From: a virus
DNA length: 64,000 bases
IMG/VR virus record: IMGVR_UViG_3300042891_000377
Location: 1-64,000 of that record
Strand: one strand, 5' to 3'
Both the position numbers and the translations under genes were made by a program. Each line of letters begins with the position of its first letter. Within the stretch, counting starts at the first letter, position 1. Under the pieces are notes generated by a model. The model had not been told where the DNA came from. It did no database searches and saw nothing but the letters and a program-made list of their open reading frames with translations. Below, piece by piece: positions 13,604-61,215 of this stretch.

Positions 13604-13618
13604 TATAATGTGTAAATT

Positions 13619-13649: not shown

Positions 13650-13667
13650 ACGACTATAAATATTGCT

Positions 13668-14470: not shown

Positions 14471-14479
14471 AACTCCCCA

Positions 14480-14515: not shown

Positions 14516-14516
14516 C

Positions 14517-14726
14517 ATGAAAATTGTTGAACTTACAAACAAACTATTATTAACAATCACAAACGAAGAACATGAACTCTTAGAGCAGTTCACCGGCGAT
14601 AATACTATTGCTAAAAGTCAATTAGACGAACGCGAGCAACTAATCGCAAATCAACTCACAGTCAAAGATGTACTGTTACGAACAAATGAAGCCGGCAAAA
14701 TCTACTACAAAAAACGTATTGACTGA
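14517..14726 (+). CDS. Hypothetical phage protein
   Basis: ORF with SD; MKIVEL start. Confidence 0.65.
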   Translation: MKIVELTNKLLLTITNEEHELLEQFTGDNTIAKSQLDEREQLIANQLTVKDVLLRTNEAGKIYYKKRID

Positions 14727-18657: not shown

Positions 18658-18714
18658 ACATATATTTAATCTAAATTATTTGACCTTTTGCAATTAACCT
18701 TATATACTAATAGT

Positions 18715-44558: not shown

Positions 44559-44567
44559 GGATGATAA

Positions 44568-45434: not shown

Positions 45435-45467
45435 TAATAGGATTTTAAAAATCCAAGGAGCAACACG

Positions 45468-46253: not shown

Positions 46254-46256
46254 TCA

Positions 46257-47348
46257 ATGAAACTATTGCTTGCTTTAGCGTGCTTAGTAGCAACTACTAA
46301 CGCATGGGCAGGCATTGGAACTGTAAGCGATACTAAAGGTACCGCTTGTTCAATAGAGCGTGCTAAACAGACCCTGCCTGGCAACAAAGGTGCGACCATA
46401 GAAAGTATGGATACCTATGTTACAGGCGGCTGTGTTAGCAATATCACATTTAAAGATGACACCAAAGTAAAAATAACAGAAAACAGTCGACTAATGATAG
46501 ACGACTTTGTTTACGATCCTAAAAAATCCGACGCAGGTAAACTAGCTCTTAAAGTAGGTATGGGCACAGTACGTTATGCCTCTGGACAAATTGCTAAAAA
46601 CAATCCACAAAAGGTAGATATTAAAACACCCACAGCTAGTATTGCTGTTCGCGGTACAGACTTTAACATGACTGTAGACGAAGCAGGACAGAGTTTAGTT
46701 ATTCTTGTGCCTAGCTGTAAAGATGGTGAAAAGATTAAAGAATACGAGCTAGAAGAAAACTTATGTAAAGTGGGCAAGATCGAAGTCAGCACACTGGCTG
46801 GTGTAGTTACCTTAGACAAAGCATTTGAAGGTACGTATGTAACCAGTGCTAACATGATGCCTAGTCCTCCAGCTATTATTAACACAATTGAAAGTAAGAT
46901 TGGTAACAGTCTTATTATCACTCGCCCACCCGAAATTGTCAAAGCTAGTAAAGAAGCAGGTAAAAGCAAACGTGATCTAGAACAAGAAGAACTAGAAGCT
47001 ATTCAAGCAAGTCAACTTGCTCAACGTATAGCTAAAGAAGGTGAAGCTAAAGCTGTAGTGTTGCCTTATAGCTTTGACAGTGGTAAATCAGGATGTAATC
47101 CGGCAATCAATGTCTGCGTTAAATGGGAAAATCCGGATGGTGAAAGCATACAGGCCAAAGGTCGAGGTATAGCGTTTCGTCAAAGTGAAGATCACTATGC
47201 AGAAGTTAAAACACAGGGCTACGAAAGTAATACGTCAATTGAAATAATTCACGATGATAATATTGCCTCAGCTACAATTGGTTCGGGCGATCCAGGTGGC
47301 AATGTAGTGCGTATCAAACAGAATTCTGGAGTGTTAAGACGACAATGA
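46257..47348 (+). CDS. Periplasmic FecR-domain protein
   Basis: Signal peptide; F.DDT...ENS.L.ID; TPTASIAVRGTDF. Confidence 0.85.
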   Translation: MKLLLALACLVATTNAWAGIGTVSDTKGTACSIERAKQTLPGNKGATIESMDTYVTGGCVSNITFKDDTKVKITENSRLMIDDFVYDPKKSDAGKLALKVGMGTVRYASGQIAKNNPQKVDIKTPTASIAVRGTDFNMTVDEAGQSLVILVPSCKDGEKIKEYELEENLCKVGKIEVSTLAGVVTLDKAFEGTYVTSANMMPSPPAIINTIESKIGNSLIITRPPEIVKASKEAGKSKRDLEQEELEAIQASQLAQRIAKEGEAKAVVLPYSFDSGKSGCNPAINVCVKWENPDGESIQAKGRGIAFRQSEDHYAEVKTQGYESNTSIEIIHDDNIASATIGSGDPGGNVVRIKQNSGVLRRQ

Positions 47349-48472
47349 AACGGCTCCTTGTAATCTTATTATTAGTTTGCTCCAATACCTGGGCCGCAGG
47401 ACTTGCTGGACTTAATTATCAGAACTATGCCGCAGGTGGTGCTATGCCATCATATACGCAAGATGCTAATGGAAACATCACTAATCGCACACTACTATCA
47501 ACTGGAACTGTGAATACGGTGGGATTAACTACTAGTAGTGGAGCAGGCTTGCCTACTCGCAGTGATGGATTTATAGTTCGTTTCTATGGTTACATCAATA
47601 TAGAAACAGCAGGTACATATTACTTTGGCGGGCAAGCAGACGACGGTATCCGTATTAAGATTAATAACATATCTGTGGTTAATAGTTGGATAGAATCTGG
47701 CGGCGCATTTAGAGAAGGCAGCATTACTTTGTCAGCAGGAGTTGTTCCGGTAGAAGTAATGTATTACGAGAACGGCGGTGGACAAATGGTTAACTTCCAA
47801 TGGTTTATGAACGGCTATTGGCAGATTGTACCTACAGCGTCGATAGCTACAGATACTACCTATTGGGCGCCTGCGGCTCCTGTACTATGTTGCGGCGGCA
47901 GTTCGTCAAGTTTTAATGCTAGTCCATCTAATGTAACAAAAGTACAGTCATACGCCACAAGGAATACCAATGACAGTCAGGTGTACATAGACCAAATTGG
48001 TAATGATAACGAGATCACAGTTAACCAAACAGGTACTAAAAATAACTACACAGAATACAATAGTAGTGGTAGTTTCAATACCGTTAATATCTCACAAACT
48101 GGTAATAGTTCAACAACAGCAAACTACGTAGAACTAAATGTCAACGGTGATAGTAATATAGTAAATCTAACGCAGCAGAGTACAGGTGGTGCCAAGGGTA
48201 TCTACGCTACAGTTAACGATGACAATAATAATGTAACAGTCTTACAGAAAGACGGTGGTAATGCTTACTTAAACTTAAACCTAAGTGGCGGTAATAAAAC
48301 TGTAGACATAACGCAACAAGGCAGTGCTGCACACATGGCTGACATTACTCTAACTGGAGCAGGTGCTAGAAGTTTAAACTTAAATCAGCAAGGTAGCACA
48401 CAACAGTTTTACAGTATTAATAGTAGTTGCGCTAGTGCCTGTCAGGCAATAACAGTAATACAAGGACAATAA
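47345..48472 (+). CDS. Secreted PA14-domain + curlin-repeat protein
   Basis: GYINI..GTY.F...ADDGIRI..YYENGGG (PA14); C-terminal QIGNDN.I.VNQTG..N repeats. Confidence 0.8.
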   Translation: MKRLLVILLLVCSNTWAAGLAGLNYQNYAAGGAMPSYTQDANGNITNRTLLSTGTVNTVGLTTSSGAGLPTRSDGFIVRFYGYINIETAGTYYFGGQADDGIRIKINNISVVNSWIESGGAFREGSITLSAGVVPVEVMYYENGGGQMVNFQWFMNGYWQIVPTASIATDTTYWAPAAPVLCCGGSSSSFNASPSNVTKVQSYATRNTNDSQVYIDQIGNDNEITVNQTGTKNNYTEYNSSGSFNTVNISQTGNSSTTANYVELNVNGDSNIVNLTQQSTGGAKGIYATVNDDNNNVTVLQKDGGNAYLNLNLSGGNKTVDITQQGSAAHMADITLTGAGARSLNLNQQGSTQQFYSINSSCASACQAITVIQGQ

Positions 48473-48547
48473 CAGCAGAATCAGTGCTGTAACGTTATTA
48501 ATAACTGTTGTATTTTTACAACATTGTTATCAAAAAACAACAAAAGG

Positions 48548-48576
48548 TTGACTCTCCATTATAAATACTGTACACT
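48548..48576 (+). promoter_or_regulatory. Overlapping sigma70 and late promoters for the porin
   Basis: TTGACT-N17-TACACT with TATAAATA at 48560-48567. Confidence 0.7.
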
Positions 48577-48623
48577 GATAGTATAACATATTAGTGTTAT
48601 CCAATAAAAGGAGAAGTATCGTA

Positions 48624-49835
48624 ATGAAGAAATTATTATTAGCAACATTATTAGCAAGTATGTATTCAACTGCGAACGCTGGCATTCAAATTCCAGCTGG
48701 TGATTGGACTCTAGACATCGGCGGCGTTGTAAACGCTTACTACACAAACACACGCGGCACAGGTGATGCTGTAGTTGGTGGCGCCGGTGGCCCTAATACC
48801 AATGGTCAACGCAATGAATCAAATATTACAACTGGTCTATTACCAAACGTATTATCAGTTTCTGGTAAATCACGTCAAAATGATTTAGACATTGGTTTCA
48901 CTATTGCAATCAATCCAGGCGCTTCAACAACAGCAGCTGGTGATCAAGGCGCTAACCAAGAAAATCGTCAAGCATTTTTGACTATCGGTGATAAATCATG
49001 GGGTAGTGTAAAACTAGGTAAAGACCTAGGTATTTTCGCTAGTGATGCTATCTTAAACGACATGACATTGTTAGGTGTTGGTTCTGGTGCTGGCGCACTA
49101 GCTGGTAACACAACTACATTGGGTCGTATTGGTACTGGTTATATGTACGCTGACTGGAAATCACAAATTGCTTACACATCACCAAACTTTAATGGATTTC
49201 AATTCACAGCAGGTGTAACACAAGCATGGAATGCTCAAACAGCTGACTTAAATGCAGCAACAGCAGGTGTACAAGCTGCTTCAGCAACTTCAACAGGCCG
49301 TGGTGGTGCACAACCAGCTTTCGAAGGTAAAGTATCTTACTCATTAGCAGGTCCCATTGCTGCTAAAGTTTGGTCAAGTGCCATTACACAAAAAGTTGAA
49401 GGTGTTACTGGTGCCAGTGCCGATGACCGTGCTTATGCTTGGGACGTTGGTACAAACTTAACAGCTGGTCCATACGGTTTAACTGCTTATTACTTTGATG
49501 GTAAAGGTATTGGCCGTACACTTCAATTAGCTGATGGTTTTGATACTACTGGTCGTCGTCGTGATTCAAACGGTGGTTATGTACAAGGTACATACACATT
49601 GCCAACAGCAACTAAACTTGGCGTAAGCTGGGGTCAAAGTAAACTAGATCGTAACAGTGGTGAAACAGCAACCGCATTAGTTTCGAAAAACGAAATGTGG
49701 ACACTTGGTGCTTACCACCCACTTACTAAATCAGTTAACCTAGTAGCTGAATACTCAGACGTTAAGTCAGAAGCACAAAACGGTGCTGAAGGCAAATCAC
49801 GCTCAGTATCGGCAGGTGCTATCTTATTCTTCTAA
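48624..49835 (+). CDS. Gram-negative outer-membrane porin
   Basis: Signal peptide MKKLLLATLL..ANA; amphipathic beta strands; YTSPNFNGF; C-terminal Phe. Confidence 0.9.
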   Translation: MKKLLLATLLASMYSTANAGIQIPAGDWTLDIGGVVNAYYTNTRGTGDAVVGGAGGPNTNGQRNESNITTGLLPNVLSVSGKSRQNDLDIGFTIAINPGASTTAAGDQGANQENRQAFLTIGDKSWGSVKLGKDLGIFASDAILNDMTLLGVGSGAGALAGNTTTLGRIGTGYMYADWKSQIAYTSPNFNGFQFTAGVTQAWNAQTADLNAATAGVQAASATSTGRGGAQPAFEGKVSYSLAGPIAAKVWSSAITQKVEGVTGASADDRAYAWDVGTNLTAGPYGLTAYYFDGKGIGRTLQLADGFDTTGRRRDSNGGYVQGTYTLPTATKLGVSWGQSKLDRNSGETATALVSKNEMWTLGAYHPLTKSVNLVAEYSDVKSEAQNGAEGKSRSVSAGAILFF

Positions 49836-49858
49836 GATTAACTTCTTAGTCTAATAAT

Positions 49859-49888
49859 TAAAAAGCCCACTCCGGTGGGCTTTTTTAC
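49859..49888 (+). terminator. Terminator, also direct repeat 1 flanking xoxF
   Basis: TAAAAAGCCCAC-TCCG-GTGGGCTTTTTTAC. Confidence 0.9.
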
Positions 49889-49913
49889 GGAGATAACATC
49901 ATTTGGTTAAAAA

Positions 49914-50020
49914 TGTAACAAATTGTAAAAATATTGCTTGACAGGTGGCCGGTTATCATATACACTAGTAAACATATAGCAAATCACATTTGTAACAAGA
50001 TGTAACAAACTATATAAATA
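49914..50020 (+). promoter_or_regulatory. xoxF promoter region: sigma70 promoter, TGTAACA direct repeats, late promoter
   Basis: TTGACA(49938)-N17-TACACT; TGTAACA/TGTAAAA at 49914/49924 and TGTAACA at 49991/50001; TATAAATA at 50013. Confidence 0.65.
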
Positions 50021-50117
50021 AAGTTGTTATTAAGGGTCCTTAGTAACATTTTCAAAACTTGTGGTCCGCGGCATACAGCAACCGGCACGTTTTTATTTAA
50101 ACACAAGGGAGATGTAA

Positions 50118-51983
50118 ATGAAGTTAAAATCAATTAAAGTAGCATTAAGTTTAGTTTTAGCATTACCAGCAGTAGCTTTCGCAGCAGCTGACCAAGAAAA
50201 AGCAATGAAAGACGCTAACAACTGGGTTGGCCCACGTGGTCAATACGACAACCAAGGTTACAGTGCATTAGCACAAGTTAACAAAGGTAACGTTAAAGGC
50301 CTTAAAGCTGCTTGGACATTCGCTACCGGTGTAAACCGTGGCCACGAAGGTTCACCAGTAGTTGTTGGTAACATGATGTACGTTCACACAGCGTTCCCAA
50401 ACAACGTTTACGCTCTTGACTTAAACGACAATCAAAAAATCGTTTGGTCTTACTTCCCAAAACAAGATCCATCAGTACAAGCTGTATTGTGCTGCGATAA
50501 CGTTTCACGTGGTCTTGGTTACGGCGACGGTAAAATCTACCTACAACAAAACGATGGTAACTTGGTTGCTTTAGACGCTAAAACTGGTGCTAAAGTATGG
50601 TCAACTTTAATCAACGATCCAAAAGTCGGTGCTACTAACACTAATGCTCCACACGTGATCAAAGATAAAGTACTGACAGGTTGTTCAGGTGCTGAATTTG
50701 GTGTTCGTTGCTTTATCGCAGCTTACAACTTAAAAGACGGTTCATTAGCATGGAAAGCATACTCAACAGGCCCTGATGCTGAAATGTTAATCGGCGAAGG
50801 CTTCAACAAAGATACACCTGAGTACAGCGCACTATCAGTTTACCAAGACGTAAACGGTGGTAACAAATTAGGTGGTTCTTTCAACACTATCCCTAATGAC
50901 AAATTAGTAATTGGTCAAAAAGAGTTAGGCACACGTACATGGTTGAAACCACAAGCAGTTAAAGATGGTTGGCAACATGGTGGTGGCTCTGTATGGGGCT
51001 GGTGGCCGTATGATGCTCGTACAAACTTGGTTTACTACGGAACAGGTAACCCATCAGTTTGGAACCCAGATGTACGTCCAGGCGACAACAAATGGTCTAT
51101 GACTGTTTTCGCTCGTGACTTAGACACTGGCGTTGCAAAATGGGGTATGCAAATGACTCCACACGATGAGTGGGATTACGATGGTATTAACGAAGTAATC
51201 TTGTTCGACAAAGGTGGTAAAACATACGCATGGCACCATGACCGTAACGGTTTTGCTTACACTTGGAATGCTGGTAACGGTAAATTAGTTGCTGCAGAAA
51301 AAGTACACCCATTCGTTAACTGGGCAACTGGTGTTGATTTGAAAACAGGCGTGCCTAACAAATTGGCTACTGCTTCAACTCACCAAGATTACAATGCAAA
51401 AGGCGTTTGTCCAGCTGCTTTGGGTACTAAAGACCAACAACCAGCTGCGTACTCACCAAAAACTGGTTTAATTTACACTCCATTGAACCACGTATGTATG
51501 ACATACGAGCCAGTTGAGTCTAAATACGTTGCAGGTCAACCATGGGTTGGTGCTACATTGACCATGTTCCCAGGTCCAGACGGTGTAATGGGTGGTTTCG
51601 GTGCTTACGATCCAATGACAAACAAAAAAGTTTGGTACAACAAAGAGAAATTCTCTGCTTGGGGTGGTGCTTTAACAACTGCTTCAAACTTAGTATTCTT
51701 CGGTACTTTAGATCGTTGGTTTAAAGCTGTAGATGCATCATCAGGTAAAGAACTATGGAAATTCCAAGTTGGTTCTGGCGTGATTGGTAATGCATTCACA
51801 TACGGTCACAAAGGTAAACAACACGTTGGCGTGCTATCAGGTATCGGTGGCTGGGCTGGTGTGGCGATGAACCTTGGTATGACTAACCCAACAGACGCTT
51901 TAGGTGCTGCTGGTGGTTATGCTGAATTAACAAAATACAACGCGGCTCCTGGCGGCGGTGCATTAACAGTATTCAGTCTTTAA
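50118..51983 (+). CDS. xoxF: Lanthanide-dependent PQQ methanol dehydrogenase XoxF (probably XoxF4-type)
   Basis: Signal peptide; GHEG; vicinal CC disulfide (LCCDNV); GAEFGVR; TGNP; HDEWDYDG with the extra Ln-ligating Asp; W-motif beta-propeller. Confidence 0.96.
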   Translation: MKLKSIKVALSLVLALPAVAFAAADQEKAMKDANNWVGPRGQYDNQGYSALAQVNKGNVKGLKAAWTFATGVNRGHEGSPVVVGNMMYVHTAFPNNVYALDLNDNQKIVWSYFPKQDPSVQAVLCCDNVSRGLGYGDGKIYLQQNDGNLVALDAKTGAKVWSTLINDPKVGATNTNAPHVIKDKVLTGCSGAEFGVRCFIAAYNLKDGSLAWKAYSTGPDAEMLIGEGFNKDTPEYSALSVYQDVNGGNKLGGSFNTIPNDKLVIGQKELGTRTWLKPQAVKDGWQHGGGSVWGWWPYDARTNLVYYGTGNPSVWNPDVRPGDNKWSMTVFARDLDTGVAKWGMQMTPHDEWDYDGINEVILFDKGGKTYAWHHDRNGFAYTWNAGNGKLVAAEKVHPFVNWATGVDLKTGVPNKLATASTHQDYNAKGVCPAALGTKDQQPAAYSPKTGLIYTPLNHVCMTYEPVESKYVAGQPWVGATLTMFPGPDGVMGGFGAYDPMTNKKVWYNKEKFSAWGGALTTASNLVFFGTLDRWFKAVDASSGKELWKFQVGSGVIGNAFTYGHKGKQHVGVLSGIGGWAGVAMNLGMTNPTDALGAAGGYAELTKYNAAPGGGALTVFSL

Positions 51984-51996
51984 TCTGTAGTTAACC

Positions 51997-52026
51997 TAAA
52001 AAGCCCACTTCGGTGGGCTTTTTTAC
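51997..52026 (+). terminator. Terminator, also direct repeat 2 flanking xoxF
   Basis: TAAAAAGCCCAC-TTCG-GTGGGCTTTTTTAC (29/30 identical to 49859-49888). Confidence 0.9.
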
Positions 52027-52045
52027 CTCTGCAATAAATACTTTT

Positions 52046-52144
52046 ATGTATACTTGGCGCGAAACGTTTATCTTTATTGAAATCATTCTATTCTTCACAC
52101 TCGTGTTTTCTATCCCCTACATAGAACAACTAATCCAACCGTAA
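52046..52144 (+). CDS. Putative 32-aa membrane peptide (not in ORF track)
   Basis: TAAATA-N5-ATG; MYTWRETFIFIEIILFFTLVFSIPYIEQLIQP. Confidence 0.4.
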   Translation: MYTWRETFIFIEIILFFTLVFSIPYIEQLIQP

Positions 52145-52180
52145 CAAAAATTTAATCTGTTTGTAACACTACTGTAATCT
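52139..52180 (+). promoter_or_regulatory. Tandem Pho-box-like array
   Basis: GTAACA/TTAATC/GTAACA/GTAATC at 52141, 52152, 52163, 52174 (11-bp period), upstream of the phosphate operon. Confidence 0.65.
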
Positions 52181-52200
52181 TTGTGTGTTTAAATATACAT

Positions 52201-52950
52201 ATGACCACAAGATATAAGACCATTTGTATATCCGACTTTCACCTTGGCACTAAAGATGCTAAGGCTGATCTATTAAACAATTTCCTTAAAAATCACACCT
52301 GCGAAAATTTATTTTTAGTTGGTGATATTATTGACGGTTGGAAGATACAGCAGAACAAGTGGAAGTGGCATCAAAGCCATACTAATGTTATTCGTCGTAT
52401 ATTAGGTTATAGCAAGCGAGGTTGTAATGTAACCTATGTAACTGGCAATCATGACGAGTTTCTTCGCCCGTTGGTAAGTCATGGATTCAATCTCGGCAAT
52501 ATTCGTATGGTAAATCAAGCAGAATATCGCAGTATAGATGGCGAGTTGTTTCTAATTACCCACGGCGACTTATTTGACGGTATTACTAGATTAGCACCGT
52601 GGTTAGGATTTTTAGGTGATAAAGCATATGATGTAGCTTTATGGTTTAATAACTATTTTAACTTTGCTCGTAGAAAATTAGGATTTGGTTATTGGAGTTT
52701 AAGCAAGTTTTTAAAAGCTCGCGTTAAGAAAGCAATGGGTTTTGTATTTAAGTTTGAACTTAACATGTTACAGTATGCTCAAAAACAAGGGTATGATGGT
52801 GTTATCTGCGGACATATACACACACCCGAAATTAAACACATCAACGGCATGATTTATATGAACGACGGTGATTGGGTTGAAAGTTGTAGTGCCCTAGTAG
52901 AAGATTATGAAGGACGCTGGGATATTATATATTGGAATGAAATTAAATAG
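52201..52950 (+). CDS. Calcineurin-like metallophosphoesterase (LpxH/YbbF-like)
   Basis: SDFHLG, GDIID, GNHD, HGD, GHIH, NDGDW. Confidence 0.9.
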   Translation: MTTRYKTICISDFHLGTKDAKADLLNNFLKNHTCENLFLVGDIIDGWKIQQNKWKWHQSHTNVIRRILGYSKRGCNVTYVTGNHDEFLRPLVSHGFNLGNIRMVNQAEYRSIDGELFLITHGDLFDGITRLAPWLGFLGDKAYDVALWFNNYFNFARRKLGFGYWSLSKFLKARVKKAMGFVFKFELNMLQYAQKQGYDGVICGHIHTPEIKHINGMIYMNDGDWVESCSALVEDYEGRWDIIYWNEIK

Positions 52951-52962
52951 GAGAGAATGTAA

Positions 52963-53964
52963 ATGACGATTCAACAGATTAAAACGATAATGTATTATGT
53001 AGTAATAGCATTTGCTGTATCAATGGCTGGATTAAAACAAGTTCAGGCAGCAGACAAAATGGTCAAAATAGACGGCAGTTCGACAGTCTATCCAATATCA
53101 GAAGCAGTAGCAGAAGAATTTCAAAAGAAAACAGGGGTTAAGGTAACAGTAGGTGAAAGTGGTACAGGTGGCGGCTTTAAAAAGTTCTGTCGCAGTGAAA
53201 CTGACATCAGCGATGCTAGTCGTCCTATTTCACAAAAAGAGATGGATGCTTGTAAAGAAGCAGGTGTACAGTACATCGAATTGCCCGTTGCCTACGATGC
53301 TCTAACTGTAGTAGTAAACAGCAAAAATGGCTGGGTTAAATCATTTACAGTTGAAGAATTGAAAAAAATATGGGCACCGGGTAGTTCAGTTAAAAACTGG
53401 AATCAAGTAAATCCAGCTTATCCAAATCAACCACTACAATTATTTGGCCCAGGTACAGCAAGTGGTACATTTGACTACTTCACCGAAGCTATCAATGGTA
53501 AGGCAAAATCCAGTCGCAGCGACTACACACCAAGTGAAGATGACAATGTTCTAGTAACTGGTGTAGCAGGTAATTCGGGGGCACTAGCTTACTTTGGTTA
53601 TGCTTATTACGAAGAAAACAAAGATAAATTACGTGCCATTCCTATCATTGCTAAGGGCTCAACAACGCCAGTATTACCAAGTCCAGAAGCAGTTATGAAT
53701 GGTACCTATCAACCATTAAGCCGCCCACTGTTTATCTATGTAAATGCAACAGCGGCTGCGTTTAGACCAGAAGTAAAAGCATTTGTAAATTTCTATTTAG
53801 AAAATGCACCTAAGTTAGTAAAAGAAGTAAAGTATGTTCCATTACCAGCAGACGACTATGCGGCAGTAACAGAGCATTTCAAAGCACTAAAACCAGGTAC
53901 AGGGTTTAACGGTACTCCAGAAGTAGGCATTAAAATTAAAGACTTAATTAAACGAATCAAATAA
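52963..53964 (+). CDS. pstS: Phosphate-binding protein PstS
   Basis: [37 protein letters not shown]. Confidence 0.93.
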
Positions 53965-53973
53965 GGAAACATT

Positions 53974-55383
53974 ATGACATTAAAAAATATTATCACAGGT
54001 TTATTCATAGCATCAGCATTAATTGCTACACCAGTATATGCAGACAGCACTAACGACATCGTGAATGCGTTGGTGATGAAAGGCGTGTTAACCGAAGAAG
54101 AAGGTGCCTTAATTAACAAAGGTCGTACTGGAGAAACAAGCGCAGTTAAAAAAGAAAAAGATACCACTGTACATGCGGCTAGCAAAATGAATATACGTGG
54201 CTACTTACAGATACGAAATACTACTATGCTCAGTGGTGACGAAGGAGTTAACCTTTGGTCAGATCGATCTGTAGGTGACAAAAATTCACTCGCTGACCAA
54301 GACAAAAACTTCCTAATTCGTCGTGCTCGTATTATTATATCAGGTTCGGCAGGTGATCGTTTAGATTACTATATTCAACCCGACTTTGCTAGTACAGCAG
54401 GTACCACAGGTAACGTTGCGCAACTACGTGATGCTTATGGTGACGTGAATCTAACCAAAGATAAAGTGCACCGTGTGCGTGTGGGTCAAAGTAAAGTACC
54501 ATATGGATTTGAAAACTTACAATCTTCACAAAATCGTTTAGCACTTGATCGTGCCGACGCATTTAACAGCGCAGTACGTGATGAGCGTGATTTAGGTGCG
54601 TTCTACTACTACACACCAGATAATGTACAAAAGTTGTTTAAAGAAATACAAGACAGTGGTTTAAAACATTCAGGTAACTACGGTATGTTTGGCGTTGGTA
54701 TATATAACGGCCAGGGTGCTAACCAACAAGATCGTAACGATAATTATCATACAGTAGCACGTTTTACTTACCCTTGGAAAACAGAAAGCGGACAAATATA
54801 CGAAGCTGGTATACAAGGTTATACAGGCAAGTATGTAAGAACAGGCAGTGCGTATAGAAGAAACATGGGCAACAACGTTTACGCAACTAAAACACCGACA
54901 TTAGAACCGGGCAACACAACTGGATTTAAAGACGAACGTATGGGTGTAAGTTTTATGATGTACCCACAACCGTTTGGTATACAAGGTGAGTGGAACTGGG
55001 GTAAAACTCCTGGCTTAGATACTGCTGCTAGTACTGATGGTATTATCAAAGAAACTAACTTGAACGGTGGTTACATTCAAACTATGTATAAAATTGATAA
55101 CTTTAAAGTATTAGATACCAATGGTACACTAATTCCATTTGTTAGATGGCAATACTTTGATGGTGCGTCAAAAGCAGAAACTAACTCACCAATGAACAAG
55201 GTTAACGATTGGGAGATGGGTGCTGAATGGCAAATCGCGCCAGAGGTTGAACTTGTGGCTTACTATCATATGATGAATCGTAGCAACCTAGTAACAGGAG
55301 CATCGGCTACTACACTAGTAAAGCAGGACTATGCTAACTTTAAAGCAGATGCCCTGCGTGTTCAACTACAGTATAACTTTTAG
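53974..55383 (+). CDS. Phosphate-selective porin (OprO/OprP family)
   Basis: F.IRRAR, LRDAY, GQ.KVPYG.E..QSS, RDLG; C-terminal Phe; follows pstS. Confidence 0.85.
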   Translation: MTLKNIITGLFIASALIATPVYADSTNDIVNALVMKGVLTEEEGALINKGRTGETSAVKKEKDTTVHAASKMNIRGYLQIRNTTMLSGDEGVNLWSDRSVGDKNSLADQDKNFLIRRARIIISGSAGDRLDYYIQPDFASTAGTTGNVAQLRDAYGDVNLTKDKVHRVRVGQSKVPYGFENLQSSQNRLALDRADAFNSAVRDERDLGAFYYYTPDNVQKLFKEIQDSGLKHSGNYGMFGVGIYNGQGANQQDRNDNYHTVARFTYPWKTESGQIYEAGIQGYTGKYVRTGSAYRRNMGNNVYATKTPTLEPGNTTGFKDERMGVSFMMYPQPFGIQGEWNWGKTPGLDTAASTDGIIKETNLNGGYIQTMYKIDNFKVLDTNGTLIPFVRWQYFDGASKAETNSPMNKVNDWEMGAEWQIAPEVELVAYYHMMNRSNLVTGASATTLVKQDYANFKADALRVQLQYNF

Positions 55384-55391
55384 GAAACATT

Positions 55392-55481
55392 ATGTTTGAA
55401 CTTTTTATAGATGCTGTAAAAGATATTAGCGGTATATTGGCGATAATGGCGGCTATTGGTATATGGTCATTTTTACTATAG
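55392..55481 (+). CDS. Putative 29-aa membrane peptide (not in ORF track)
   Basis: AGGA SD; MFELFIDAVKDISGILAIMAAIGIWSFLL. Confidence 0.4.
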   Translation: MFELFIDAVKDISGILAIMAAIGIWSFLL

Positions 55482-55614
55482 ATTGCAAGAAAATTACTGG
55501 TCTTTAATGATTTTACGTATGTTATTTAGGTCAAAACGGTGTTACTATATGTATAAGTACTAGTAACAACAAAACATGTTGTGGTACTTTTAATAATTTA
55601 CTAGGAGAAATACT

Positions 55615-55686
55615 ATGTGGACTAAACCAGCAGCCACTGAAATGCGTTTCGGTTTTGAAGTAACTCTTTACGTAATGAACCGTTAA
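55615..55686 (+). CDS. pqqA: PQQ precursor peptide PqqA, 23 aa (not in ORF track)
   Basis: MWTKPAATEMRFGFEVTLYVMNR with ExxxY; AGGAG SD; TATAAGTA at 55552; own terminator. Confidence 0.96.
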   Translation: MWTKPAATEMRFGFEVTLYVMNR

Positions 55687-55707
55687 TTTTAAGGTCCATA
55701 ACGTAAA

Positions 55708-55731
55708 CAAAGCCTCTTAGGAGGCTTTTTT
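55708..55731. terminator. Terminator shared by pqqA and the HNH gene
   Basis: AAAGCCTC-TTAG-GAGGCTTTTT. Confidence 0.85.
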
Positions 55732-56181
55732 ATTGGCCCGTGTTTCTGCCAAGGATGCTCTAATTTTTGCTCGTGTTTCTTCACTAACGACATGCCCTTT
55801 ACGACTTGCGGCCCAATTAGCCATATGTTCTTCAGACTTCTTTTTGCCCTTCATTGCTTCAGAACGTTTTTTATTGGCTTCTTCTAACTTACCACTTGCT
55901 CGTTGTCTTTCTGTTCTAAGTTTACAACTTTCTCTGAGTTTTGCTTTAGATTCCTCAGACATGGGTTTCTTGCTGCCTTTACTCCTTGCCATAAACATTG
56001 CCTCATCTTGTCCCATTTGCCCAGACAATGCTTGCCAAGCACAATAGTCTTGCCAATTGCCGTGTTGTTCGTACAGCAAGCGATGCGCTTCTGCGTGAGC
56101 TTCTACGGTAAGTTCTATTAGGTTACTAGGATCGTCGGTGCCGCCTAGGTATTGAGGTAAGATGTGATGTATATGTTTCAT
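55717..56181 (-). mobile_element. Free-standing HNH homing endonuclease with NUMOD3-like repeats
   Basis: HHILP..GG.D..SNL..L...H...H; SEESKAKL and SEETRAKI repeats. Confidence 0.85.
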
Positions 56182-56335
56182 ACAGTTATTTATTATTGTT
56201 ACTTCATAACCTATAAACAAAACTTATTGCGACCATTTAAAAATACAATTAAAAAAACCTATTAATCAGGCTTTTTTTATTAAAAATTTTAATATATAAT
56301 ATATGTACATTAACAATTTAATCAAGGGGAAGTAA

Positions 56336-56902
56336 ATGAGTTTAATCGGAAAACAAGTAGAAGCATTTAAAGCACAAGCATACCGTCAAGGTCAGTTTGT
56401 AGAAGTATCAGAGCAAGATTTAAAAGGTCGTTGGAGTATAGTATTCTTTTACCCAGCAGACTTTACATTCGTCTGCCCAACAGAATTAGCAGACTTACAA
56501 GACGTATACGCTAGTGACTTTAAAGCAATGGGGGTAGAAGTATACAGCGTAAGCACAGACACACACTTTGTACACAAAGCATGGGCAGATGCTACAGACA
56601 CAATCCGTAACATCACCTACACAATGATTGGCGATGCTAACCATCAGTTAGCTCGACAATTTGGTGTGCTAATTGAAAGCGAAGGACTAGCTGATCGCGG
56701 TACGTTTGTTATTGATCCAGATGGTGTTGTACAGATCATTGAGATCAATCCAGGGGGTGTTGGCCGTGACGCAAAAGAACTATTGCGTAAAGTTAAAGCG
56801 GCAAAATACACTAGAGAGCATCCGGGTGAAGTATGCCCGGCTAAATGGCAAGAAGGAAGTGCTACCTTAGCACCAAGTTTGGATTTAGTAGGTAAACTAT
56901 AA
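56336..56902 (+). CDS. ahpC: Alkyl hydroperoxide reductase C (2-Cys peroxiredoxin)
   Basis: [13 protein letters not shown]; GEVCPAKW; [10 protein letters not shown]. Confidence 0.96.
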
Positions 56903-56906
56903 AAAC

Positions 56907-56932
56907 AAAAAGCCCCAATTAAGGGGCTTTTT
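56907..56932. terminator. Bidirectional terminator
   Basis: AAAAAGCCCC-AATTAA-GGGGCTTTTT between convergent genes. Confidence 0.9.
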
Positions 56933-56934
56933 TA

Positions 56935-57231
56935 TCACTGAGTTAACACCCATTTAACTAGCGTTTTAATATCCTCGTCTTTGATCTGTGGACTCATTGG
57001 CGGCATTGGGATAGGACCCCATACTCCACTACCACCTGCTTTAACCTTTGCTACTAGTTTAGCCTCTACATCTTGACCTTTGTATTTCTTAGCAACGTCT
57101 TTATACGCTGGACCTAAGATCTTATGATCAACTGCGTGACAAGCTAAACACCCACTTTTCTGTGCCAATGCTTGGTTAGCATTTGCTGTGATGCAACTAC
57201 CTAATAATAATACTGCTAAAATAGTTTTCAT
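56935..57231 (-). CDS. Periplasmic class I cytochrome c (c551/c552, c8 family)
   Basis: Signal peptide; CLACH; GPAYKDVA; GSGVWGPIPMPP (Met ligand). Confidence 0.93.
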   Translation of the reverse strand: MKTILAVLLLGSCITANANQALAQKSGCLACHAVDHKILGPAYKDVAKKYKGQDVEAKLVAKVKAGGSGVWGPIPMPPMSPQIKDEDIKTLVKWVLTQ

Positions 57232-57346
57232 TTTAGACCTTTCATAAAAGTTAACTTACAATGTATTTAACGCCGATAAACTATATCTATTTATTTTTGG
57301 TAGAATTTTGATTGACGAAAATTCCAAAAGAGTAAATAATAGTACT

Positions 57347-59371
57347 ATGATGAAAAATAAACTTAAAAAACTCCTAGTCAGTCCGTGGACTGCGTTAATT
57401 ACATTAGCTGTTATTGTAGTAGTAATCCTACAAGGACCTACATTCGTAGAGTCGGTTAGACTTAGATACTTTGACACACTGATTAGTGGCAAGGCTCCTA
57501 CAGAAAATAATATCTATACTGTAAACATAGATGAAGCAACATTAGACAAGTATGGGCAATGGCCATTTAAGCGTGACAAGTACGCAGACCTAATTGATGA
57601 CCTGTACAAACATGGCGCTGGCCTAGTTGTTTGGACTGTTATGATGCCAGAAGCAGACCGTCAAGGTGGCGATGCGGCCTTGGCATTAGAGTTAGAGGAC
57701 CATCCAGTTATCCTTACTAACATGCCCAGTGAAAAGTCTAAGAACATCCCACGTAAACCAGGCAGTGCTGTTATTGGTGACGAGTACAGCGACACAATTA
57801 TCACCTATCCGGGTATCATTGCTAACATTCCAGAACTAGAACGTAATGCCGCTGGTGTTGGTATTGCTAACACATTCCCAGAGGTAGATGGTGTTAATCG
57901 TCGACTACCATTGTTCGTTGGTTATGACAATAACGTATATCCAAGTATTCCGTTAGAAGTATTACGTGTTATATCGCAAGACTCAACATTCCAAGTTAAA
58001 CTAAATGAATTTGGTGTTGAGAAAATGCGCATACCAAGTTTCCGTCCTATCAGCACAGATAGCTTAGGTCGTATCTGGGTAGACTGGAGTCAAAAGTCAA
58101 CACAGGTATCAGCAGTCAACTTGCCTACAGACTTTGGTGGTGCTGTGGTTATTGTAGGCCTAAGTGCCGCAGGTTTAGCTAACCCAGTGCCAACTAGTAT
58201 CGGTAGCGTATGGCCACAAGATATGCAGGCCGCTGTTATTGGTACGTTAGCTAACAACGTAAACATTGAACGTCCATTCTGGGCAGACAATGCTGAACTG
58301 TTGGCTCTTATTGTTATCTCACTTATTATTTTAATCTTGAGCCGTTGGGTATATGTTGGCCTAGGAGTTGGCGTTGTATTGCTTGCGGCAATTACACCTG
58401 CAACAATGTATGCGTTTGCGCACTATAACTTCTTGTTTGATGCCATTGTGCCCACAGCAGGCGGTGTACTGGTTATGCTACACGCTTATGGTGTTAAGTT
58501 TATTAGCGAGTTCTTACAGAAACAACAGATCAAGAAACAATTTGGTAGCTACGTTAACCCTACTATTGTTGAACGCTTACAAAAGAATCCAGAGCTGATT
58601 AAACTAGGCGGCGAACGTAAAGAACTTTCAATTGTTATGACTGACCTACGTGGCTTCACAACACTTGGCGAATCGTTTGGTGATGATGTAGAAGGACTTA
58701 CACAGATCATGAATGACTACATGACAGCATTGAGTATTCCTGTGCTAAAGAATGATGGTACTTTAATTAAGTTTATCGGTGATGCTAGTTTACACGTACA
58801 CGGTGCTCCGTTGGATGATGCTAATCACGCTAAGACTGCGGTGCGTACTGCACTCGAAATGATCAAAGCCATTGAAGACTTTAACGTAGAACTTGTTGCT
58901 AGTGGCCGGCCACCGGTTGGTATGGGTGCTGGTGTTAACACAGGTGAAACCTTAATTGGTAACATTGGTGCTAAGAGCAAGTTTGGTTATGACGTTCTAG
59001 GTGACAGTGTAAGTACTGCGGCACGTTTAGAAGGACAAACTAAGTCATATGGTGTGTTACTAATCATCGGTCCTAAGACTGCTGAATACTGTAAAGATGA
59101 CTTCCCTGTAGTATGGTTAGACAACATTGCCGTTAAAGGTAAAACTATTGGCTTAGATATCTACACAGTTGGTCGTACTAATCTTTATATGCACGAGGAG
59201 TATCGTAAAGAATATACTCGTGGTAATTGGGGCAAGGCTATTGTATGGGCTAAAAAATTAGTCAACAACGATGATGTTGATATTAAACATTACTATGAAC
59301 TAATGATTGAACGTATGGAACAGGGTGTTCCTGCAAACTGGGATGGCACTTATCACGCCACTTCAAAATAA
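57347..59371 (+). CDS. CHASE2-domain class III adenylate/guanylate cyclase
   Basis: IDEATL..GQWPF.R and DGVNRR (CHASE2); 3 TM helices; TDLRGFT, KFIGDA, GD.V..AARLE. Confidence 0.93.
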   Translation: MMKNKLKKLLVSPWTALITLAVIVVVILQGPTFVESVRLRYFDTLISGKAPTENNIYTVNIDEATLDKYGQWPFKRDKYADLIDDLYKHGAGLVVWTVMMPEADRQGGDAALALELEDHPVILTNMPSEKSKNIPRKPGSAVIGDEYSDTIITYPGIIANIPELERNAAGVGIANTFPEVDGVNRRLPLFVGYDNNVYPSIPLEVLRVISQDSTFQVKLNEFGVEKMRIPSFRPISTDSLGRIWVDWSQKSTQVSAVNLPTDFGGAVVIVGLSAAGLANPVPTSIGSVWPQDMQAAVIGTLANNVNIERPFWADNAELLALIVISLIILILSRWVYVGLGVGVVLLAAITPATMYAFAHYNFLFDAIVPTAGGVLVMLHAYGVKFISEFLQKQQIKKQFGSYVNPTIVERLQKNPELIKLGGERKELSIVMTDLRGFTTLGESFGDDVEGLTQIMNDYMTALSIPVLKNDGTLIKFIGDASLHVHGAPLDDANHAKTAVRTALEMIKAIEDFNVELVASGRPPVGMGAGVNTGETLIGNIGAKSKFGYDVLGDSVSTAARLEGQTKSYGVLLIIGPKTAEYCKDDFPVVWLDNIAVKGKTIGLDIYTVGRTNLYMHEEYRKEYTRGNWGKAIVWAKKLVNNDDVDIKHYYELMIERMEQGVPANWDGTYHATSK

Positions 59372-59382
59372 AGGATTAGATT

Positions 59383-60108
59383 GTGTATCTAATAAACAAT
59401 CAACCTGTAATTGATCTGTCAGAATATGTTAATATGCAGAAGTTGTTTGATCAAAAATCACAGTTCGATTATGCTGTGGTTAAGAGTTCACCGCTGGTTA
59501 CTCCCGCTCGTTATTATCGCACACAATTCTTAGACCAACAACATCTTGGAATTTCAGATGTAATAGAAACATATAATAATTCAGATGAATTTGATTTCCT
59601 TCAAGACCTTAGAGATCACGGTCAATTGGCTAGTTGGTTAAGATACAATCAAAATCTTATATACGGACAACAAAGTGTTCCTATAATCTACCCAACAAAT
59701 TGGCTTACTAAACATATTGCAGATGAAACAGTCAAAACAGAAAACGTAAAATATTTTAAATTTTTATTTGATTGGTTAGCTGATGAACAAATATTTACTG
59801 AGTACGGTCGTGTAGTAGTATTTTTAAATGAGCCGGGAGTTTCAACACCAATTCATCAAGACTCTTCCGATGCATCACGAAAAGATGAATTCATTTGGTT
59901 AAGTCTCGGCGATAGGAAAAAGTTTTTTGTATACGATGAAAAAAATAAAGTTAAGCATTATTTAACAAGTGCTATCGGCACGTTTGATGCTACTAATTAT
60001 CATGGCGCTGATGCGGGGGAATTTGCATCGTGGAGTATGCGTATAGATGGTACATTCTCAGATTCATTTTTAATAAAAACTAATTTATATAAACATTTTA
60101 GGAATTAA
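59383..60108 (+). CDS. Putative 2OG-Fe(II)/cupin oxygenase
   Basis: HQD, distal YHG, SMRIDG. Confidence 0.5.
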   Translation: MYLINNQPVIDLSEYVNMQKLFDQKSQFDYAVVKSSPLVTPARYYRTQFLDQQHLGISDVIETYNNSDEFDFLQDLRDHGQLASWLRYNQNLIYGQQSVPIIYPTNWLTKHIADETVKTENVKYFKFLFDWLADEQIFTEYGRVVVFLNEPGVSTPIHQDSSDASRKDEFIWLSLGDRKKFFVYDEKNKVKHYLTSAIGTFDATNYHGADAGEFASWSMRIDGTFSDSFLIKTNLYKHFRN

Positions 60109-60109
60109 T

Positions 60110-60895
60110 ATGAAATATTTTATAGTATTAATACTGTTTCTATCAACGTCAGCTATAGCAAAACCTATTACTGCTAAAAGTTTTTTAGTGGCAGATAACA
60201 CAGGCGAAGTTATATTAGAAAAGAATGCCGACCGTGTACAGCCCATTGCTAGCATTACTAAACTAATGACAGTAATGGTAGTGCTAGACGCCCACCAAAA
60301 CTTAGATGAAATGATCACATTGGATCGCAGATTAGTTGGCAAGTATCACACTCGATTGCCTCGCAGTGTTAAACAACTTACTCGTGGTGAATTGATTGAT
60401 CTTGCTATTGTTAAGAGTGATAACCTTGCCGCATATACATTAGGCGCAAATTATCCGGGCGGTTTAACACGATGTATTGCTGAGATGAATCACATTGCGT
60501 TTGTACTAGGTATGTCAAATACCACATTTGCTGACCCAACAGGACTAGACGCAGACAACGTCAGTAACGCTCGTGACTTAGGCAAATTAGTTTTAGCCGC
60601 AAAAGAATATACGGAGATTACCGAAGCAAGTGGTAAACCTAATGTAAGTATCAAAGTTAAACGTCGTTGGTGGCAGTTTGGTAACACTAATCCAATGGTT
60701 AGAAATAGCAATGATGTACGAGTGAGTAAAACAGGTTATATAAATGAAAGTGGTGGTTGTGTGGTTATGCTACTTGATACTGAATTAGGACAACGTGTGA
60801 TTGTATTGTTGGGTAGTAAAAATACTCGTACACGTTTCCCAGAAGCACAAAAAATCGCTGTAACAGTTAGTAACAGCGATATTAATGTTGATTAG
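60110..60895 (+). CDS. D-Ala-D-Ala peptidase S11 (PBP7-like)
   Basis: Signal peptide; SITK, SDN and KTG motifs. Confidence 0.9.
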   Translation: MKYFIVLILFLSTSAIAKPITAKSFLVADNTGEVILEKNADRVQPIASITKLMTVMVVLDAHQNLDEMITLDRRLVGKYHTRLPRSVKQLTRGELIDLAIVKSDNLAAYTLGANYPGGLTRCIAEMNHIAFVLGMSNTTFADPTGLDADNVSNARDLGKLVLAAKEYTEITEASGKPNVSIKVKRRWWQFGNTNPMVRNSNDVRVSKTGYINESGGCVVMLLDTELGQRVIVLLGSKNTRTRFPEAQKIAVTVSNSDINVD

Positions 60896-61215
60896 TCACT
60901 GCCACCACTAGCGGCTTTATCGTCTTCTGATTTCTTATCAACATTGTTGATAGCTTTCTCAGCTTCTACACGTTCAAATTCAATTGTCTTACCGCGTAAA
61001 TGTAATACTGTGTTTACTTTTTGATTCAAACGTATCAAATCGTTGTCTAACATACGTATACGATCAATTAAGGCAATAAGCACAGTATTTGCGTCTGAAA
61101 TGACTGGTTTTACCTCTTTTGTAGCCCATTCCCACACGTATTTGATGATGAATCCCATACCCACTGCCATAACAATGGGAAAGCCATATTTGTTTACTAA
61201 ATCTACTACATCCAT
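60892..61215 (-). CDS. Holin-like single-TM coiled-coil protein
   Basis: GFP + TM helix, then coiled coil; paralog of 62694..62975. Confidence 0.55.
   Translation of the reverse strand: MDVVDLVNKYGFPIVMAVGMGFIIKYVWEWATKEVKPVISDANTVLIALIDRIRMLDNDLIRLNQKVNTVLHLRGKTIEFERVEAEKAINNVDKKSEDDKAASGGSD

Follow-up and report, generated by a model that had tools for sequence, protein, structure and literature searches.

The stretch of 64,000 nucleotides analysed here (the window) is probably part of an incomplete sequence from a very large phage whose hosts are freshwater Methylophilaceae. It carries methanol-oxidation cassettes that would serve the infection, including a methanol dehydrogenase gene, xoxF, the mature part of which seems to have been swapped with the host gene. 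The best overall reading is of three independently transcribed cassettes, xoxF, pqqA, and a c8-type cytochrome c gene, which sit in a shuffled island whose genes derive from the host and encode proteins of the periplasm and outer membrane.

The phage setting claimed by an earlier note on this DNA was borne out by replication and tail genes of phage type to either side of the island and by the IMG/VR virus record. The window contains primase, DnaB, RNR, virion protein, baseplate, and tail-fibre genes, further phage genes lie in the remainder of the 104-kb contig, and genes of these kinds together with ligase genes flank the host-derived island on both sides. CheckV completeness is 19% for the contig and 62% for a syntenic relative, the 219-kb contig L016. 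The nearest matches of the phage DnaB are jumbo phages, PA5oct and Atu_ph07 among them, and the phage encodes a tmRNA of betaproteobacterial type.

The xoxF gene (50118..51983, plus strand) is an intact open frame of 621 codons composed of a phage-type signal peptide (50118-50171) and a host-like mature region (50172-51983). Its assignment as an XoxF4-like, lanthanide-type PQQ methanol dehydrogenase draws on family, residues, mosaic identity with host sequences, tree, and dN/dS. In profile searches the protein matched TIGR03075 over its full length at 613.5 bits (cutoff 480) and Pfam PQQ at 142 bits, and its best solved relatives are the XoxF structures 6oc5 and 6dam. The sequence EWDYDG aligned with the La-binding region of these structures (EWDFDG in 6oc5 and EWDYDG in 6dam) and thus has the D-x-D arrangement, in which an extra lanthanide-coordinating Asp lies two residues past the catalytic Asp; Ca-dependent MxaF has Ala at this position. 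The lanthanide-binding Asp of XoxF is documented as essential (10.1101/2020.02.25.964783), and it is retained in every phage XoxF copy that covers the site. The vicinal Cys pair (CCD) and the metal-ligand motifs SGAEFG and GTGNP (Glu and Asn) are also present, all catalytic and metal-binding motifs being retained in every phage copy, and the N-terminus resembles a signal peptide, ending in AFA followed by A. The phage XoxF is therefore predicted to be a complete, exported, lanthanide-type methanol dehydrogenase, as first suggested from its signal peptide, vicinal Cys pair, and DYD motif. Codon use in xoxF differs from that elsewhere in the contig (AAC, 0.86 versus 0.37; TAC, 0.93 versus 0.36; TTC, 0.81 versus 0.21; CGT, 1.00 versus 0.45; GC content, 43.5% versus 38.5%). 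The codon bias reported earlier is real, but it is that of the host chromosomal gene itself, given that the two are 98.4% identical over the mature region.

The ends of the cassette are those of a phage gene. The 5' leader (50058..50117, plus strand) aligned with the phage loci L007-L010, L165, L173, and L004, carries the invariant elements GTGGTCCGCGGC (50061-50072, plus strand) and CAACCGGCAC (50079-50088, plus strand) and a ribosome-binding site, AAGGGAG, and was not found in any host xoxF upstream region examined. The stretch comprising leader and signal peptide (50040-50171) matched only other phage xoxF loci, and the signal peptide is four codons shorter than that of the host. Downstream, the xoxF terminator hairpin (51997..52026, plus strand) has a 3' flank for which the sole matches were L005 and L011, phage loci from other metagenomes in which phage genes (pqqA, ahpC, or cytochrome c) come after the flank. 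This hairpin is the second copy of a 30-bp direct repeat, the first copy of which, as read from the sequence, is the terminator hairpin after the upstream porin gene (49859..49888, plus strand). The two repeats, identical at 29 of 30 positions, bracket the xoxF cassette, and the relative L021 aligned up to 49887 and again from 52146 with xoxF missing between.

A candidate sigma-70-like promoter (TTGACA, 17 nt, TACACT; 49938..49966, plus strand; a consensus match only, at 10 of 12 positions) precedes xoxF and is the top-scoring promoter-like site of the region. It is followed by TATAAATA, the T4-type late-promoter consensus (50013..50020, plus strand), 98 nt upstream of the xoxF start. The earlier note had proposed phage late promoters. 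The placement of TATAAATA agrees with this, as 8 of the 10 copies in the contig are intergenic (intergenic DNA being 8.4% of the contig) and each of these faces a gene start, but overall enrichment was not seen (8 copies observed in the window versus about 10 expected). The gp23 capsid family (PF07068) gave no match in the contig, three relatives, or the control genomes, all of these records being fragments, and the T4-like late promoter reading therefore draws only on TATAAATA positions.

From 50172 to 51984 the DNA is 98.4% identical to the chromosomal xoxF genes of the Methylophilaceae isolates RH-M32 and MMSCM63, and from 50772 to 51931 it differs from MMSCM63 at one of 1160 positions. Other island genes are only 64-86% identical to the same host genome. 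The high identity of the mature region points to allele replacement by recombination, and the mature coding part of the cassette looks as though the host allele had overwritten it in the recent past. The cassette would keep its phage-type leader, signal peptide, and terminator while the mature part is exchanged with the current host allele, which would keep XoxF matched to the host partner proteins. Note that the host-identical centre could partly be an assembly effect, host reads having been followed where host and phage sequences are near-identical.

As expected of an auxiliary metabolic gene, xoxF is a host-type gene with viral genes on both sides that recurs in independent viral contigs. 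Across different metagenomes we found at least ten such viral-context loci, with xoxF beside homologues of the phage RNR, DnaK, and CHASE2 genes; pqqA was a few kb or less away in 8 of the 10, and xoxJ and xoxG were found in none of the ten. In a tree, the phage XoxF nested with RH-M32 and MMSCM63 inside the set of named Methylophilaceae genomes, the xoxF genes of which sit in xoxF-xoxJ-xoxG clusters. As the tree was built without reference XoxF1, 2, 3, or 5 sequences, the expected clade number, XoxF4, rests on the report that XoxF4 is known solely from Methylophilaceae (PMC6028718). The mature regions of the phage copies are spread over four or more host clades, and their monophyly was rejected (delta lnL 856, p-AU 7e-5). 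The dN/dS values of phage-phage pairs, a check called for at the outset, were 0.03-0.13, the same as those of host-host pairs; for divergent phage copies, at dS values reaching about 1, they were 0.05-0.12. Phage xoxF is under strong purifying selection.

Cyanophages carry psbA and other photosynthesis genes, which are host-derived, encode core proteins of high turnover, and exchange alleles between host and phage. Phage xoxF is likewise a host-derived gene of energy metabolism that is polyphyletic, under purifying selection, and mosaic with host alleles, and the psbA analogy drawn previously extends even to allele exchange (the 98.4% mosaic and the four or more host clades). In contrast to the psbA product, phage XoxF is predicted to be periplasmic and to need both a metal and an organic cofactor from the host.

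The pqqA gene (55615..55686, plus strand), also recognised in the earlier note, encodes a 23-codon PQQ precursor peptide that matched TIGR02107 at 38.4 bits (cutoff 20) and has the Glu-x3-Tyr pair within F-E-V-T-L-Y. It is preceded by an AGGAG ribosome-binding site and followed by a terminator hairpin (55709-55728). Upstream region, gene, and terminator form a mini-cassette (55482..55729, plus strand) that travels as one piece between relatives: in L005, L011, L016, and L021 alike, the blastn block begins at 55482-55488. Intact pqqA homologues were present in 12 related viral-context loci, and host genomes have 3-6 copies each. The absence of partner genes from the window was extended to the whole 104-kb contig, in which neither xoxJ nor xoxG was found. 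The search for pqq partners covered pqqC and pqqE; neither gene was found in the contig, the 219-kb relative, or two other relatives, whereas both were detected in the host genome G006 used as the control. Phage xoxF and pqqA depend on host genes, and the host would process PqqA into PQQ.

During infection, the predicted phage promoters (the sigma-70-like site plus TATAAATA before xoxF) would sustain both the enzyme and its limiting cofactor precursor. XoxF can be viewed as an abundant enzyme of low turnover number, and the PqqA peptide would be consumed one-for-one in making PQQ. Host PqqB-E, XoxJ, XoxG, and lanthanide uptake would then give active enzyme from the phage products. Methanol-derived electrons would keep flowing while host transcription falls, so that production of ATP and of formaldehyde/formate would continue, and the phage cytochrome may give electrons a broader route to the terminal oxidase.

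The proposal that xoxF, pqqA, and cytochrome c form a single module did not hold: these are separate cassettes of a shuffled island, with phosphatase, PstS, phosphate porin, HNH endonuclease, and AhpC genes interspersed among them. Just upstream of xoxF is an outer-membrane porin gene (Porin_4; 48594..49835, plus strand; Pfam PF13609, 79.8 bits) that has its own promoter-like TTGACT-17-TACACT plus TATAAATA at 48560 and a 77% nucleotide match to two host loci. Between xoxF and pqqA are genes for a calcineurin-like metallophosphoesterase (52183..52950, plus strand; Pfam PF00149/PF12850), a PstS-family periplasmic phosphate-binding protein (52963..53964, plus strand; TIGR02136, 316 bits; matching the host pst region at 72% of nucleotides, with the gene lost by deletion from L016 and L021), and a phosphate-selective porin O/P (53974..55383, plus strand; Pfam PF07396, 134 bits; a 74% nucleotide match to the host). 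The metallophosphoesterase has no part in methanol oxidation, and its gene order is shuffled in relatives. Beyond pqqA lie a free-standing HNH/NUMOD3 endonuclease gene (55717..56220, minus strand; weak Pfam PF01844 and PF07460 matches), present in L005 and L021 and absent from the corresponding place in L016, and an AhpC peroxiredoxin gene (56336..56902, plus strand; TIGR03137, 316 bits, cutoff 272). The islands of the close relatives L016 (219 kb, about 62% of the genome) and L021 keep pqqA and cytochrome c and lack xoxF, which is dispensable for these phages.

The third cassette (56935..57231, minus strand) encodes a class I c-551/c-552 (c8-type) cytochrome c with a signal peptide, in agreement with the earlier assignment. 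The 98-residue protein has a CLACH haem site and a PMPPM Met region and aligned with the solved structures 2d0s (E=3e-29) and 1dvv (E=4e-26), its best relatives being c-551/c-552 proteins. The single CxxCH, the distal Met in PMPP, and the length of about 80 residues past the signal peptide are those of the c8 group (class ID). Copies 87-98% identical adjoin the CHASE2 gene in L011, L016, L017, and L021. In the periplasmic chain electrons pass from methanol dehydrogenase to cytochrome cL, then to cytochrome cH, and on to an oxidase, and the phage protein may be a cH-type carrier downstream of XoxG and so linked to XoxF. It is quite conceivable, if somewhat less than an even chance, that the cytochrome is instead uncoupled from XoxF and shares the island by chance, carrying electrons for respiration in general or for a peroxide-related reaction, with a cbb3/aa3 oxidase or cytochrome c peroxidase as a possible acceptor. 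Its gene is convergent with ahpC, with which it shares a hairpin (56907-56932), and is retained in the two relatives that lack xoxF. Cytochromes 45-66% identical occur in other viral contigs, the fetched flanks of which contain neither xoxF nor pqqA, and a 70% identical host homologue lies between permease and epimerase genes, a context that is uninformative as to function. However, in L011 xoxF, pqqA, and cytochrome c follow one another directly over about 1.3 kb. Moreover, the hosts are obligate or near-obligate methylotrophs, in which most periplasmic electrons would originate at methanol dehydrogenase.

The benefit could also lie in carbon rather than energy, with formaldehyde/formate entering purine synthesis to build phage DNA, the proposal of Coutinho et al. 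(PMC7678222). RNR genes lie near xoxF in the relatives L003, L006, L007, and L009, and a very large genome implies a high nucleotide demand. We consider this reading unlikely, although worth keeping in mind: the co-carried soluble cytochrome c points to electron flow and energy, as does the formate dehydrogenase alpha subunit gene directly after xoxF in L004 (TIGR01591, 885 bits), the product of which would burn formate to CO2, and the island showed no RuMP, H4F, or purine genes. The energy and carbon aims are compatible, neither excluding the other.

That xoxF is a transient passenger, taken from the host very recently, of no benefit, and due to be lost, seems improbable. The very recent exchange with the host allele, the presence or absence of xoxF among near-identical islands, and the flanking direct repeats, which would ease loss, are consistent with it. 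However, the phage leader and shortened signal peptide are common to phage copies with mature regions of different host clades, and the xoxF cassette is therefore old in phages; the low dN/dS among divergent copies, the catalytic and metal-binding motifs kept in every copy, and the repeated co-occurrence with pqqA likewise argue against it. An assembly chimera, in which host chromosomal DNA was joined into the contig of a phage without xoxF, is very improbable despite the virtually host-identical 1160 nt within the 98.4% identical region, the host-like GC content and codon use, and the absence of xoxF at the corresponding place in close relatives, because both ends of the cassette match only phage loci, those matched at the 3' end running on into phage genes, xoxJ/xoxG do not follow as in host clusters, three substitutions at the xoxF 3' end are common to the window and L005 against both isolates, and an assembler could switch paths only if the true phage allele were already near-identical to that of the host.

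The core idea, a phage methanol dehydrogenase plus pqqA, is already known and its novelty cannot be claimed: Coutinho et al. (2020; Microbiome 8:163, PMC7678222) described both in Lake Baikal Methylophilaceae phages (populations VP_139 and VP_266). Those phages are likewise from freshwater, were assigned to Methylophilaceae, have RNR alpha/beta and radical-SAM genes and a similar GC content (about 35-38%), and gave rise to the same helper-gene idea. Compared by description, that report makes no mention of xoxF, lanthanides, cytochrome c, formate dehydrogenase, porins, PstS, or recombination. The phages are termed T4-like there, whereas here the helicase is nearest to jumbo phages and gp23 is unmatched (as in the controls), and that report ties radical-SAM genes to PQQ synthesis, whereas all three radical-SAM proteins of this phage are twitch-domain proteins with no PqqE match. 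New here are the lanthanide-type residues, the Methylophilaceae XoxF clade, the recurrence in at least ten viral-context loci, the phage-specific leader joined to mature regions of host clades, the probable allele replacement in the mature region, the terminator-repeat bracket with xoxF missing from close relatives, the strong purifying selection, and the formate dehydrogenase alpha subunit of one relative. The Methylophilaceae xoxF-xoxJ-xoxG clusters (XoxF4; Huang et al. 2018, PMC6028718; RH-M32 and MMSCM63) share with the phage gene its mature sequence (98.4%), identical catalytic and lanthanide residues, and codon bias; the phage copy differs in its own leader, signal peptide four codons shorter, own terminator, and lack of xoxJ/xoxG. 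As cited in PMC13518059, the pmoC-phages of methanotrophs (Chen et al. 2020) are also large freshwater phages with a host-like C1-oxidation gene, more than 90% identical to those of co-occurring hosts; as described there, they differ in acting at the methane rather than the methanol oxidation step, in another host family, and with another enzyme class.

The product of the plus-strand PQQ dehydrogenase gene xoxF (50118-51983, 621 codons) matched TIGR03075, the curated methanol/ethanol PQQ-dehydrogenase model, with 613.5 bits (cutoff 480), and among solved structures its closest matches are the lanthanide enzymes 6oc5/6oc6 and 6dam. The EWDYDG of XoxF aligned with the segment carrying the lanthanum-coordinating aspartate of the solved structures, a residue known to be essential by experiment (10.1101/2020.02.25.964783), and the vicinal cysteine pair and the glutamate and asparagine ligand motifs are all present. 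The 23-codon pqqA, located in the present analysis at 55615-55686 (plus strand), scored 38.4 bits against TIGR02107 (cutoff 20) and encodes the Glu-x3-Tyr pair. The minus-strand cytochrome c gene (56935-57231, 98 residues) is properly called c8-type because its product, with a single CxxCH, can be aligned over its full length to c-551/c-552 proteins (2d0s, E=3e-29). The earlier note, which had read a complete lanthanide-type XoxF with vicinal cysteines and DYD motif, a pqqA and a c8-type cytochrome from the sequence, was thus correct on all three genes. Database proteins 93-95% identical to XoxF are encoded on contigs of 120-142 kb, and searching a phage collection with XoxF returned only distant glucose-dehydrogenase-like matches in mis-labelled Acinetobacter records.

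Across its mature region (50172-51984), the phage xoxF and its chromosomal counterpart in RH-M32 and MMSCM63, both Methylophilaceae isolates, agree at 98.4% of nucleotide positions. Their differences cluster strongly, with about 30 in 50177-50771 and a single one in the 1160 nt of 50772-51931; three more at the 3' end are common to L005, another phage locus. Only other phage loci match the 3' flank and the 5' stretch that comprises leader and signal peptide (50040-50171), the leader motifs GTGGTCCGCGGC and CAACCGGCAC are invariant among phage xoxF copies, and the phage signal peptide is four codons shorter than that of the host. In the phylogeny the mature xoxF of this phage falls with RH-M32 within the Methylophilaceae, as one of at least four separate places occupied by phage mature regions, the others being within the Ca. 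Methylopumilus clade, next to LSUCC isolates and with Uisw_099/OM43-like sequences. A single clade for the phage copies, a group defined after the first tree had been seen, was rejected (delta lnL 856, p-AU 7e-5). From these alignments and trees, the simplest reading is one old phage cassette, the interior of which was replaced by host alleles via homologous recombination. Alternatively, the assembler may have followed host reads through part of xoxF, but such a path switch requires that the true phage allele was already nearly identical to that of the host. Relative to the same host genome, the two porins, pstS, pqqA, the cytochrome gene and ahpC are only 64-86% identical in nucleotide sequence, indicating that these host-family-derived genes are apparently older residents of the phage than is the interior of xoxF. 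RH-M32 has a second xoxF paralogue with 88% nucleotide identity (seen in MMSCM63). No literature was found under the names of the two isolates.

Scans of IMG/VR, metagenomes and genomes gave ten viral-context loci with xoxF (L003-L010, L165 and L173), eight of them on IMG/VR contigs, which derive from seven metagenomes, and two on metagenome contigs. Most adjoin homologues of the phage RNR, DnaK, AhpC, phosphoesterase or CHASE2 genes (protein identity 45-97%), and in eight of the ten pqqA lies a few kb or less from xoxF. None carries xoxJ or xoxG; in contrast, bacterial loci have the order xoxF-xoxJ-xoxG-xoxG. These ten loci, devoid of xoxJ and xoxG, speak against a chimeric assembly with host DNA; the phage xoxF is very probably no chimera, and it is not a one-off. 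Between phage copies dN/dS was 0.03-0.13, at dS values reaching about 1, purifying-range values equal to those between host copies, and the catalytic motifs are all retained.

The xoxF gene is bracketed by 30-bp terminator hairpins (49859-49888 and 51997-52026) alike at 29 of 30 positions. Upstream lies a general porin gene (48594-49835) and downstream follow genes encoding a metallophosphoesterase (52183-52950), a PstS-family phosphate-binding protein (52963-53964), a phosphate porin O/P (53974-55383), PqqA, a free-standing HNH/NUMOD3 endonuclease between pqqA and ahpC (55717-56220, minus strand), AhpC (56336-56902), the cytochrome c and, just downstream of it, a CHASE2 adenylate/guanylate cyclase (57308-59371). 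In the relative L021 the match runs to 49887 and restarts at 52146, without xoxF. The 219-kb relative L016 lacks both the porin gene and xoxF at this place, with the match restarting at 52015, and xoxF was not found anywhere in that contig. In L005 and L011 xoxF is directly followed by the pqqA cassette, and in L011 the cytochrome gene comes next. These shifts of gene presence and order show that the island is a mosaic of independently moving units, among which xoxF is the most variable. Also, pstS is almost wholly deleted in the close relatives L016 and L021 (about 53041-53050 is joined directly to about 54038-54040), and the phosphoesterase and porin O/P genes are in swapped order in L021. 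L005 and L021 also have the HNH/NUMOD3 gene and L016 lacks it at the corresponding position, the pattern that a mobile gene of the homing type should give.

Upstream of xoxF are a TTGACA-17-TACACT site and one TATAAATA. The phage-type late promoters of the earlier note hold up in part: TATAAATA is not over-represented by count, and 8 of its 10 contig copies lie in the intergenic 8.4% of the contig, each pointing to a gene start. TGTAACA was rejected as a repeated upstream motif (23 found, 24 expected). An Rfam scan of 47-60 kb found no known RNA family, only sub-threshold terminator-like matches, and the consensus fold of the conserved xoxF leader was unconvincing (-1.4 kcal/mol). Five of the phage loci (L007, L008, L010, L165 and L173) have an additional hairpin (about 15 nt) separating the two invariant leader motifs, with compensatory changes (GCGCTC/GAGCGT versus ACGCTC/GAGTGT); the leader in the window (50058-50117) is without it.

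Neither xoxJ nor xoxG was found in the whole contig, and searches of the contig and three relatives gave no pqqC or pqqE, although the host control was positive; for these four partner genes the absence reported for the window thus extends beyond it. Three paralogous twitch-domain radical-SAM genes (window 8173-9309 and 9302-10318; contig 76967-78280) were considered as PqqE. All three match subfamily NF033640 and PqqE was not among their hits, and so they should not be taken for PQQ-synthesis genes. The Methylophilaceae host genomes searched (G006-G010) each contain three to six separate pqqA copies, which fits the view that precursor supply matters. In the related phage of the 72-kb contig IMGVR_UViG_3300025120_009955 (L004:10001-21666) the same island position has, in order, xoxF, formate dehydrogenase alpha, an OMP beta-barrel gene, pqqA, a SoxYZ-like carrier and the CHASE2 cyclase. 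The formate dehydrogenase alpha subunit, directly after xoxF, is full length (11955-14795, TIGR01591, 885 bits), and the carrier (18082-18801) is of the quinoprotein-dehydrogenase-associated type (TIGR04557). Together with pqqA, these two genes make energy yield a likelier purpose than biosynthesis alone. A phage formate dehydrogenase beside xoxF was not found in Coutinho et al. 2020 (PMC7678222).

The phage genes are intact, recurrent, under selection, dependent on the host and assignable to a host. By continuing to supply an abundant periplasmic enzyme (XoxF) and a consumed cofactor precursor (PqqA), the phage would allow methanol oxidation to go on during infection. Proximity of the genes is what suggests that the cytochrome may be coupled to XoxF. 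We give an even chance to a broader model, in which a long-lived phage xoxF cassette, with phage leader, phage signal peptide and terminator repeats, has its mature region repeatedly overwritten, through homologous recombination, from the xoxF of the infected Methylophilaceae host, so that the enzyme would stay compatible with the XoxJ, XoxG and lanthanide delivery of that host. In that model the shuffled island, from which relatives variously also obtain pqqA, a c8 cytochrome gene, formate dehydrogenase alpha and a SoxYZ-like carrier, would therefore be an exchangeable tool-kit for energy-yielding steps of methylotrophy.

Methanol dehydrogenase plus PqqA in Methylophilaceae phages, with a proposed helper-gene role, were described previously (Coutinho et al. 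2020, PMC7678222), which bears out the earlier note's mention of such genes in lake viral contigs and removes the novelty of the core idea. That report does not mention xoxF, lanthanide, cytochrome, formate dehydrogenase or recombination, and our literature search found no other report of a phage xoxF or methanol dehydrogenase, nor a later phage-xoxF paper. Allele exchange, the cassette structure and the accompanying cytochrome, of which we found no description, are additions. The xoxF mosaic would be a second case, outside photosynthesis, in which host and phage exchange alleles of a core energy gene, and the near-identity to the cultured RH-M32 and MMSCM63 points to a concrete host for testing. 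Methylophilaceae are among the main methanol consumers of lakes and coastal water, and so phages that bring in the enzyme starting methanol oxidation can shift the flow of C1 carbon while they infect. As the phage enzyme is of the lanthanide type, infected cells would continue to rely on the uptake of rare earths.

The contig is a single sequence of 104,171 bp (GC about 38%) without terminal repeats, the first 64 kb of which is the window; CheckV completeness is estimated at 19% in the IMG/VR record. The genes are indeed embedded among phage genes: primase, DnaB helicase, both RNR subunits, virion structural, baseplate/tail-spike and DnaK-homologue genes in the window, and tail fibres, fibre-assembly proteins, DNA ligase and a betaproteobacterial-type tmRNA outside it. 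The nearest relatives of the DnaB helicase are from jumbo phages such as PA5oct, Atu_ph07 and XaC1. A syntenic relative of 218,902 bp is estimated to be only 62% complete, and thus the phage genome is probably well over 200 kb. A gp23 search gave no match in the phage or in its control genomes, and we would not call the phage T4-like.

The tmRNA (contig 80604-80896; L001:16604-16896, in the part beyond the window) scored 84.3 bits against the betaproteobacterial model RF01850 (gathering score 84) and also fits the model for permuted tmRNAs; in L007-L009, conserved portions of it lie close to xoxF and pqqA. The full-length DnaK homologue (window 37472-39388) is about 69% identical to DnaK-like genes in records of the phage collection, some of which may be bacterial sequence with a wrong label. 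Genes for c8-type cytochromes c (45-94% identical) occur in many IMG/VR contigs (L012-L015, L018-L020 and L022-L033) that within 10 kb have no other gene in common with the phage contig, and therefore cytochromes c of this small soluble kind may be more widespread as phage helper genes. Around xoxF, pqqA and the cytochrome gene, 44061-62542 is a long run of genes for exported and envelope proteins, including CsgF, CsgG, FecR-domain and PA14/curlin-repeat proteins, the two porins, PstS, AhpC, the cytochrome c, the CHASE2 cyclase, an S11 D-Ala-D-Ala carboxypeptidase, DUF4337 and a class 3 lipase; the block looks like an island for remodelling of the periplasm and outer membrane. Two adjoining fatty-acid desaturase genes lie at window positions 41397-42973.
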